Source of the DNA: Gammaproteobacteria bacterium
Lineage (GTDB): Bacteria > Pseudomonadota > Gammaproteobacteria > SG8-11
DNA length: 35,425 nt
Direction of reading: 5' to 3'
Assembly (NCBI GenBank): GCA_031370545.1
Contig: JANMQQ010000037.1
Span: 1-35,425 of the forward strand
This document shows, one piece after another, positions 31,889-32,667 of this stretch (positions are counted from its first letter, which is position 1; the number at the start of each line of letters is the position of its first letter). Made by a program: the position numbers and the translations under genes. Below the pieces are notes generated by a model. That model ran no database searches. It had not been told where the DNA came from and saw nothing but the letters and a program-made list of their open reading frames with translations.

Positions 31889-32667
31889 TATTTGGCTTTG
31901 GCTTGCAGGCGCACAAGAATCTGCCGCGCGGCGTCTTGCACCATGACATTGCGCAACTGATCCTGCTCGGCGGTTTTTGCCAACACCTGCGCCTCATCGA
32001 ATATCATTTCGCGCGTGATGCGAATTTCCTGTGCGTCGGAAGACCACGCGTTGTTCTTGGCTTGTGCTGAAAATGACACCGTATAAACCAGTTCGTAGTT
32101 TTTTTCACTTACGGTTCGGCCAATGGAAATCATGCGGCGATCAAATGTTTCGCTCAAAATATGCAGCGTCGCGGTTGCCTCGTCCGGATTATCGGTGACG
32201 CGCGCGCCATTGCTGGTCAGCATCTGCCGCAACGGCGTAGCGATGCTGCTCGATGGTTGCTGATCTTGCAGATAGGTCACGTCCATACCGCGCGGTAATT
32301 GGACCACACCGCGCAGATGGAAGCCGCAGGCGGTGAGCAGGAATAGGGGTAGCAGGATAAATGTCAAGAACCGCCGTAGGCGGAGGGCGCACCCACCTAA
32401 CCACCCCGTCCGCTGCGCGTCCACCCTCCGCTGCTCAGGTTGTGCAAGTGCCGCGAAGCGCTGGGATGCGCAAGAGCGGCCTTGAAAATAAGGAGGGGAG
32501 ATAGCAGCCCCCTCACCTCCTTTGTTCAAGGAGGGGTGCCCCGTAGGCGACCGCCATGGATGGCGGAAGTTAGAGCAACGCAGGAGCAGTTGCCGGGTGG
32601 GGTGGTCACGGTCAGTGCCGGAAATCAGCGCGTGCGTCCTTTCCTGCTTGCTGCGCAGGCCATTCAT
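31888..32667 (-). CDS. lptE: LPS-assembly lipoprotein LptE with a repeat-derived N-terminal extension
   Basis: Lipobox [11 protein letters not shown] (Cys codon 32328-32326). leuS-lptE-holA synteny. ATG at 32667 overlaps the leuS stop (ATGA). Alternative in-frame starts are GTG 32424 and TTG 32367. Confidence 0.9.
32399..32606. repeat. Inverted pair of the same REP-like units as 766-895, each interrupted by a nested ~50-bp double-hairpin element
   Basis: 32399-32429 plus 32480-32501 matches 845-896 apart from one substitution, one missing C and the duplicated CC. 32512-32547 plus 32595-32606 resembles 766-816. Inserts lie at 32430-32479 and 32548-32594. Confidence 0.85.

Follow-up and report, generated by a model that had tools for sequence, protein, structure and literature searches.

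A mosaic of palindromic repeats in the putative signal-peptide leader of LptE in an uncultured gammaproteobacterial lineage

The stretch of DNA analyzed here (the window; 35,425 nucleotides, contig JANMQQ010000037.1 of the Gammaproteobacteria assembly GCA_031370545.1, hereafter genome G000) carries lptE, the gene for an essential outer-membrane lipoprotein, directly downstream of leuS. In this genome LptE is probably made by translation that begins at the leuS stop codon, at ATG 32667, and continues in frame through a composite of dispersed palindromic repeats before it reaches the lipoprotein signal. The repeats were inserted downstream of the ancestral start codon, the frame across them is open in many alleles, and members of the same repeat family lie in-frame in other genes. 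Both genes are on the minus strand, as are all features of the locus described below. The leuS coding sequence of the list of open reading frames (ORFs), 32664..35417, ends with a TGA at 32664-32666, which the start of the long lptE ORF (32665..32667) overlaps as ATGA, as the original prediction had stated. The statement that the same coupling is used elsewhere in the window also held, with four other ATGA overlaps and one GTGA among our own, crude gene calls, which also underlie the overlap of repeats with coding sequence given below. The lptE ORF (31888..32667) encodes 259 amino acids and, as predicted, stays open through the repeat for 113 codons up to the lipobox cysteine, Cys114. An Arg-rich segment and about 12 hydrophobic residues lead up to this cysteine, which closes the motif L-T-A-C (h-region and lipobox, 32326..32364; Cys codon, 32326-32328), and with an n-region net charge of +11 the features of a lipoprotein (type II) signal, judged from sequence only, are present. 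Its length is unusual: use of ATG 32667 would place 113 residues before the cysteine, compared with 24-30 in alleles of the genus that have no insert. Mature LptE, including the stop codon (31888..32325), has orthologues of 82-87% identity in the genus, and the cysteine and the residues that follow it, G-F-H-L-R-G, are invariant in 24 aligned homologues. The Pfam family PF04390 (LptE) covers residues 137-254 (49.2 bits against a cut-off of 23, E 1e-12), and leuS lies directly upstream of lptE in all eight in-genus junctions for which the upstream flank is available.

We compared positions 32340-32680 with the genome itself (4.36 Mb in 483 contigs) using blastn and obtained 203-213 high-scoring segment pairs (HSPs), with a high-copy part at approximately 32386-32612. 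Borders drawn from the profile of HSP ends divide this part into a left outer arm and four modules. The arm (32596..32612) is apparent in the fold, as inverted repeat I3 and in the repeat coverage profile, and pairs with module D. Module A (32548..32595) is a 48-nt hairpin unit, module B (32480..32547) a double hairpin, module C (32427..32479) a unit of about 51 nt, and module D (32386..32426) the right outer arm. Full-length genomic copies number 58 for A, 19 for B (with up to about 60 partial ones), 38 for C and 74 for D (counted over 32399-32426). Elsewhere in the genome the modules occur singly and in other combinations; the lptE repeat is a mosaic of independently occurring modules, not one element. 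The nested palindrome first described was borne out by the predicted RNA fold, a long nested hairpin of -156 kcal/mol compared with -133 +/- 5.7 kcal/mol for shuffled sequences (z -4.0; none of 100 shuffles as stable), and the repeat region holds 11 inverted-repeat pairs. The single element gave way to the four-module mosaic, and the repeat-derived leader, put at about 95 amino acids in the original prediction, comprises about 75 clearly repeat-derived codons, or about 90 when a degenerate flank is counted. This flank (32613..32651, leader codons ~6-18) aligns at 78% to a repeat copy on contig C228, is conserved with genome G004, and looks like a decayed repeat remnant. A search of 32200-32800 for Rfam families gave no match at E values up to 1. 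Genome-wide the repeat family forms 145 merged clusters totaling 12,851 nt; only 8.5% of its bases overlap called genes, compared with 86% of the genome called coding, and the family is therefore mainly intergenic. Of the genus's five other genomes, four contain it as well.

The leuS-lptE junctions of these five genomes (G001 to G005) and of three metagenome contigs (L061 to L063) were compared with that of G000. The original prediction had placed the repeat within the n-region of the signal peptide and had proposed a search for relatives with an empty site; three such relatives, G001, G002 and L063, place the repeats downstream of the ancestral start. In each of them an ATG abutting the leuS stop, in the same Shine-Dalgarno context as in G000, is the only in-frame ATG, GTG or TTG able to give a signal peptide, which is 24-30 amino acids long. 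From these empty sites it follows that translation ancestrally began at the leuS stop and that the repeats occupy DNA that formerly coded for the n-region. In the more distant G003 a separate spacer, which contains stops, is present, and lptE has an ATG of its own. The complete junctions that bear an insert (G000, G004, G005 and L062) contain no stop in the lptE frame, in four of four cases, and one to five stops in either of the other frames. Mononucleotide shuffles of these junctions are open in just 2-6% of cases. With the partial junction of L061, the relatives' copies are thus free of the in-frame stops that had been named as a possible refutation. Each complete junction has an in-frame start at the leuS stop, in the form of ATGA in G000, TGA-ATG in G004 and GTGA in G005 and L062.

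The lengths of the inserts point in the same direction. Indels of 4, 48, 3 and 51 nt separate G000 from G004; the 48 nt are module A and the 51 nt module C, both absent from G004. The 4-nt indel lies just 3' of the start and is matched by a switch to a start in the -1 frame: the end of leuS reads ACA-TGA in G000 only, which turns a -1 frame GTG into ATG, whereas leuS ends in GCG-TGA/TAA or GGC-TGA in the seven other junctions. G005 and L062, in both of which module A is present, show no indels relative to each other although their 3' stretch has strongly diverged, and between L061, which is without module A, and G005 the net difference amounts to 48 nt. Lengths divisible by three are not a property of the modules as such, because many genomic copies differ from the lptE copy by other amounts (22/58 for A, 11/19 for B, 25/38 for C and 10/74 for D). 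The contig of L061 ends inside the repeat, and all 47 available codons are open. Its in-frame ATG, GTG or TTG codons lie only 10, 5 and 4 codons before the cysteine, and the codon at position -13 is GCG; because the downstream start codons are too near the cysteine for a signal peptide, translation of L061 must begin in or upstream of the repeat.

Further alleles were found in protein databases with the 159-amino-acid short form as query. Twenty-seven of 114 candidates matched at E <= 1e-40, and we compared 17 clusters at least 79% identical (besides the window's own) together with seven further members from ten of the clusters. Leaders are 44-96 amino acids long in 12 of the 17 clusters, two of these counted via a longer cluster mate, with the representative cut at a contig end, and 24-30 amino acids long in the other five. 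For alleles known only as protein, a start next to leuS was assigned by N-terminal similarity to the M-G and M-D starts of DNA-verified junctions. All four combinations of modules A and C occur, and all are open: both modules in G000, A in P0011 (which is without module C), C in P0029 and neither in G004. When leaders were matched to three-frame translations of the DNA junctions, the modules proved to be read in frames f0, f1 and f2 across lptE alleles, and a family does not correspond to one conserved peptide. The leaders of P0005, P0006 and P0010 are open even though the frames in which they read these modules are interrupted by stops in G005 and L062. These comparisons indicate that the amino-acid sequence of the leader is free while the open frame is kept. 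Net charge is +2 to +11 in all leaders, which suits a cytoplasmic n-region.

Among the candidate starts in G000, ATG 32667 has the best initiation context. A Shine-Dalgarno-like sequence, GGTGGTGA, lies in the last leuS codons (~32669-32676) and would serve the lptE start. Its duplex energy of -8.1 kcal/mol, calculated with a generic anti-Shine-Dalgarno motif because a search for the 16S 3' end gave no match in the assembly, is stronger than that at 89% of 1183 confident ATG starts in the genome, and 3% of control sites reach this strength. The probability that the start codon is unpaired is 0.98. The other candidates, with duplex energies calculated in the same way, are GTG 32424 (codon 32422-32424; 32-residue leader, -2.6 kcal/mol, probability unpaired 0.02) and TTG 32367 (codon 32365..32367; 13-residue leader, -5.9 kcal/mol, probability unpaired 0.87). 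We rejected GTG 32424, which is part of the module D consensus, is buried in a stem and is abutted by GGAGG without a spacer.

A number of observations weigh against translation of LptE through the repeat. Copies of the modules elsewhere in the genome seldom carry a stop in the frame used by lptE (A 0/58, B 3/19, C 1/38, D 19/74), and 12 of 41 genes, lptE included, have a frame open across a repeat cluster that faces their 5' end (cluster length 60 nt or more, distance up to 120 nt); most of the other 11 have an obvious downstream ATG start. Because the repeats are poor in stops in the lptE frame and so many facing genes are open, openness of a single allele is weak evidence. Nor are the alleles independent: they are related, and the trees built from either flank, lptE-holA and leuS, give a star for the eight in-genus sequences and conflict with one another, so that independent insertion events cannot be counted on a tree. 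In G000 an ATG at the ancestral position, 4 nt downstream of ATG 32667, competes with it and yields only a 12-codon ORF (32625..32663, directly 3' of the leuS stop in the frame-1 translation). The starts of the protein-only alleles are choices of gene callers, which called four clusters from internal ATGs, and we found no precedent for a lipoprotein signal peptide of 113 amino acids. TTG 32367 is unpaired, has a middling Shine-Dalgarno sequence and is preferred by a codon-usage caller. At -13, the position of this TTG, all long-leader alleles but L061 have V, M or L, a pattern that could mark a newly evolved internal start and is the best argument for one. Finally, none of the contigs of four public DNA runs bridges 32421-32568, and a search of public runs listed no RNA run that holds the sequence. 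The weight on the other side lies in the many differently built open alleles, the compensated frameshift, L061 and the empty sites. It may be added that ATG 32667 and the ATG at the ancestral position share one Shine-Dalgarno sequence and should compete for it. Gene callers also disagree on the start, because the same allele in one cluster is called from M-G-Y (96 amino acids) and from an internal ATG (45 amino acids); three different kinds of start were chosen for the same allele.

The alternative that survives best, though we judge it unlikely, is that LptE is made mainly from an internal start, either TTG 32367 with a 13-residue signal or GTG 32424 with a 32-residue signal, and that the frame from ATG 32667 is incidental or tolerated. 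The accessibility of TTG 32367 and its moderate Shine-Dalgarno sequence speak for it, as does codon-usage scoring, which falls through the leader and picks the TTG, and the 32-residue signal from GTG 32424 looks conventional for a lipoprotein. The stop-poor repeats would also give rise to open frames often. At -13 the codon is GTG or TTG, and thus able to start, in the four insert alleles seen as DNA (G000, G004, G005 and L062) and GCG in the empty sites; every long-leader allele known only as protein has V or M there, and four of five short-leader alleles have A or T. As strong evidence for an internal start this pattern fails on two alleles: P0012 has V at -13 yet a normal 28-amino-acid signal, and L061 has the insert, Ala at -13 and no usable downstream start. 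The pattern may instead be phylogenetic; other residues of the h-region are shared as well, and the long-leader alleles therefore point to common descent. A 13-residue signal from TTG 32367 would have no charged n-region, and the homologous codon is paired in G004 (probability unpaired 0.01) and only 0.28-0.29 unpaired in G005 and L062. GTG 32424 carries the burden of its buried position and its weak, unspaced Shine-Dalgarno sequence. An internal start also leaves unexplained the frame-preserving indels, the compensating switch of start and the modules that are read in different frames and yet are always open.

A second alternative, which we consider improbable, is that the frame is kept open mainly for RNA reasons: ribosomes crossing the repeat would prevent termination at module B and polarity on lptE-holA, the long protein would be a by-product, and either start might supply LptE. 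The second hairpin of module B, a 7-bp GC-rich stem-loop (32493-32514), is followed by the T-run CTTATTTTCA and looks like an intrinsic terminator by pattern match, with three overlapping matches to a terminator pattern compared with 0.6 +/- 0.8 in shuffled sequences. For the suggestion of the original prediction that the hairpins could tune leuS-lptE-holA expression, this candidate terminator is the one hint. The very stable fold of the whole leader and the overwhelmingly intergenic distribution of the family are in keeping with such a role, as is the result of a promoter scan, which found no sigma-70-like site in 32250-32800 and hence no promoter-like site between leuS and lptE. The terminator, however, is a pattern match only, and melting of a hairpin needs an ORF in any frame that ends before lptE, yet all alleles seen as DNA are open in the lptE frame itself. 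This explanation overlaps with translation of LptE through the repeat and does not exclude it. Least probable is that the interior of the insert is an artefact of assembling a repeat-rich metagenome bin, with length and frame unreliable: short high-depth repeat contigs do pile up over the interior that no independent contig spans, the genome is fragmented, and contigs of relatives break at such repeats (L061 and the rarA gene of G004), yet 32150-32421 and 32568-32850 are reproduced with no differences by independent contigs from one public DNA run, which reach 35-45 nt into the repeat on either flank at an even depth of ~10-11, four other assemblies have related inserts at the same site, and the protein alleles P0011 and P0029 keep the same module order with one module fewer.

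If LptE is translated through the repeat, ribosomes that finish leuS, or that bind its terminal Shine-Dalgarno sequence, would start lptE at ATG 32667 and translate, in the lptE frame, a mosaic of selfish palindromic modules (~225 nt) lying between the ancestral start and the hydrophobic core. The product would be a pre-LptE with a basic leader of ~100 residues, unconstrained in sequence, followed by a normal h-region and lipobox. This leader would stay cytoplasmic while the h-region enters the membrane in the N-in orientation of a type II signal anchor; Lgt would then lipidate Cys114 and LspA would cut before it, so that the peptide encoded by the repeats is removed and mature LptE stays the same. 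The insertion, Lgt and LspA steps follow general knowledge of lipoprotein biogenesis, and we infer the use of ATG 32667, the export of the product and the cleavage of its leader from the sequences. More tentatively, and as a possibility that we do not yet favor, the n-region of the LptE signal peptide in this genus could be a self-cleaning landing pad for terminator-like palindromic repeats. Because leuS and lptE share no intergenic DNA, the only dispensable stretch would run from the coupled start to the hydrophobic core. Repeats that land there might survive only if the frame remains open; ribosomes might melt their hairpins, including the terminator-like one, and so keep lptE-holA expressed; and signal peptidase II might discard the resulting junk. 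The outcome would be a hypervariable leader of 44-113 residues whose sole constraint is the absence of stops in the right frame.

The original prediction had also drawn an analogy to Rickettsia palindromic elements (RPEs), and three copies of module A inside long ORFs of G000 bear it out. In rarA (C252:26844-26887, locus L088), whose product has the domains AAA, AAA_assoc_2 and MgsA_C, a 17-amino-acid in-frame module-A insert lies between the AAA lid and MgsA_C; it is absent in G001, and the gene of G004 is split over two contigs at the insert point. The gene for a 1333-amino-acid HrpA-type helicase (hrpA; C179:2454-2515, locus L089; domains DEAD, Helicase_C, HA2_C, OB and DUF3418) carries a composite in-frame insert of several tens of residues that includes module A; G004 has it too, whereas G001 and G003 do not. 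In a small Met-rich secreted protein (C316:2309-2360, locus L090), a 17-amino-acid module-A insert, missing from G002 and G004, lies just after the signal peptide. Because none of these three proteins can be made without translating the repeat, and orthologues exist without module A, the family behaves like RPEs. The broader proposal, that selfish repeats can safely occupy the signal peptides of essential lipoproteins, has lptE as its one instance; all other validated in-frame copies lie outside signal peptides.

Two further copies were seen near the 5' ends of genes. At C382:4071-4162, modules C and D immediately precede the gene for a 156-amino-acid protein with a Sec-type signal. No stop interrupts its frame across the repeat as far as an ATG 48 codons before the called TTG; this may be a second leader case. 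At C357:866-924 (locus L091), module A falls within the first 35 codons of a called 361-amino-acid gene, upstream of what appears to be the real signal peptide. The start was probably miscalled; otherwise the gene is a further leader case.

RPEs are described as short dispersed palindromic repeats that occur in-frame inside unrelated protein-coding genes and are translated, and enterobacterial repetitive intergenic consensus (ERIC), BOX and other miniature inverted-repeat transposable element (MITE) sequences as small repeats that create in-frame fusions with host ORFs, in a review of MITEs (PMC10969869, citing Ogata et al. 2000 for RPEs). By analogy, the repeats described here resemble RPEs in being dispersed and palindromic and in having in-frame copies within ORFs (rarA, hrpA, the small secreted protein and the lptE leader), and resemble the intragenic ERIC, BOX and MITE fusions in that small repeats are joined in-frame to host ORFs. 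They differ from RPEs in that the same modules are read in different frames in different alleles, that most copies are intergenic and that the lptE copies lie in a part of the protein predicted to be removed; a sequence relationship is not expected, this being another lineage, uncultured, with Gallionella and Nitrosomonas as nearest named relatives. Repetitive extragenic palindromic (REP) sequences are, as their name says, extragenic. With these and the bacterial interspersed mosaic elements (BIMEs) of enterobacteria and pseudomonads our repeats share short imperfect palindromes, a mostly extragenic location and variable mosaics, and the genome has Y1-transposase-family genes; unlike REP/BIME, the modules are also found inside ORFs, and only one of ten Y1-transposase matches adjoins a module copy.

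Long cleaved leaders are themselves known, among them a 68-amino-acid twin-arginine translocation (Tat) leader on the NiFe hydrogenase small subunit, with proteomic support in Shewanella (PMC3223724), and long, cleaved leaders of autotransporters and two-partner secretion proteins (PMC2805444). The lptE leader would resemble these in extending far beyond the usual 20-30 amino acids and, as predicted here, in being cleaved; theirs are conserved and functional, whereas that of lptE is hypervariable, repeat-derived, up to 113 amino acids long and placed on a lipoprotein signal. The literature searched, which did not cover subscription journals, yielded no description of a bacterial signal peptide that contains palindromic or MITE repeats. 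In-frame palindromic repeats are textbook material for Rickettsia; to our knowledge, a cleaved signal peptide made up mostly of such repeats is not known, and still less so one on an essential lipoprotein. The lptE case would thus be of a known kind in a new setting, with RPE-like in-frame repeats forming the discarded, hypervariable signal-peptide leader of an essential lipoprotein. If so, RPE-like behavior would extend to a free-living, uncultured lineage of betaproteobacterial type, lipoprotein export and LspA processing would tolerate ~100 unconstrained residues ahead of the h-region, and gene callers would systematically mis-annotate such genes. The lptE alleles offer a natural series for the length limits of the n-region, with 24, 30, 44, 54, 81, 94 and 113 residues ahead of one mature protein, and on the landing-pad proposal the leader would be a natural reporter of the N-terminal cargo that the lipoprotein export pathway tolerates.

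Downstream of lptE lies a holA-like ORF (30857..31888), named from the original prediction and synteny, whose ATG shares one base with the lptE TAA (TAATG). A link of the modules to REP-associated tyrosine transposases (RAYTs) was considered and is not evident from the genome: of the ten matches to the Y1 transposase family (PF01797) in the genome, the one at C213:9997-10336 is the only one abutted by a module-A copy, and no lptE-type cluster lies within 1.5 kb of any of the ten. The C213 case may be chance or a hint of a RAYT-like mobilizer. At the other end of the window, positions 781-900 hold an intergenic composite of the same repeat family, between plus-strand genes at 10-753 and 907-1461, in which two inverted copies of module D surround a loop and are followed by an arm of module B.

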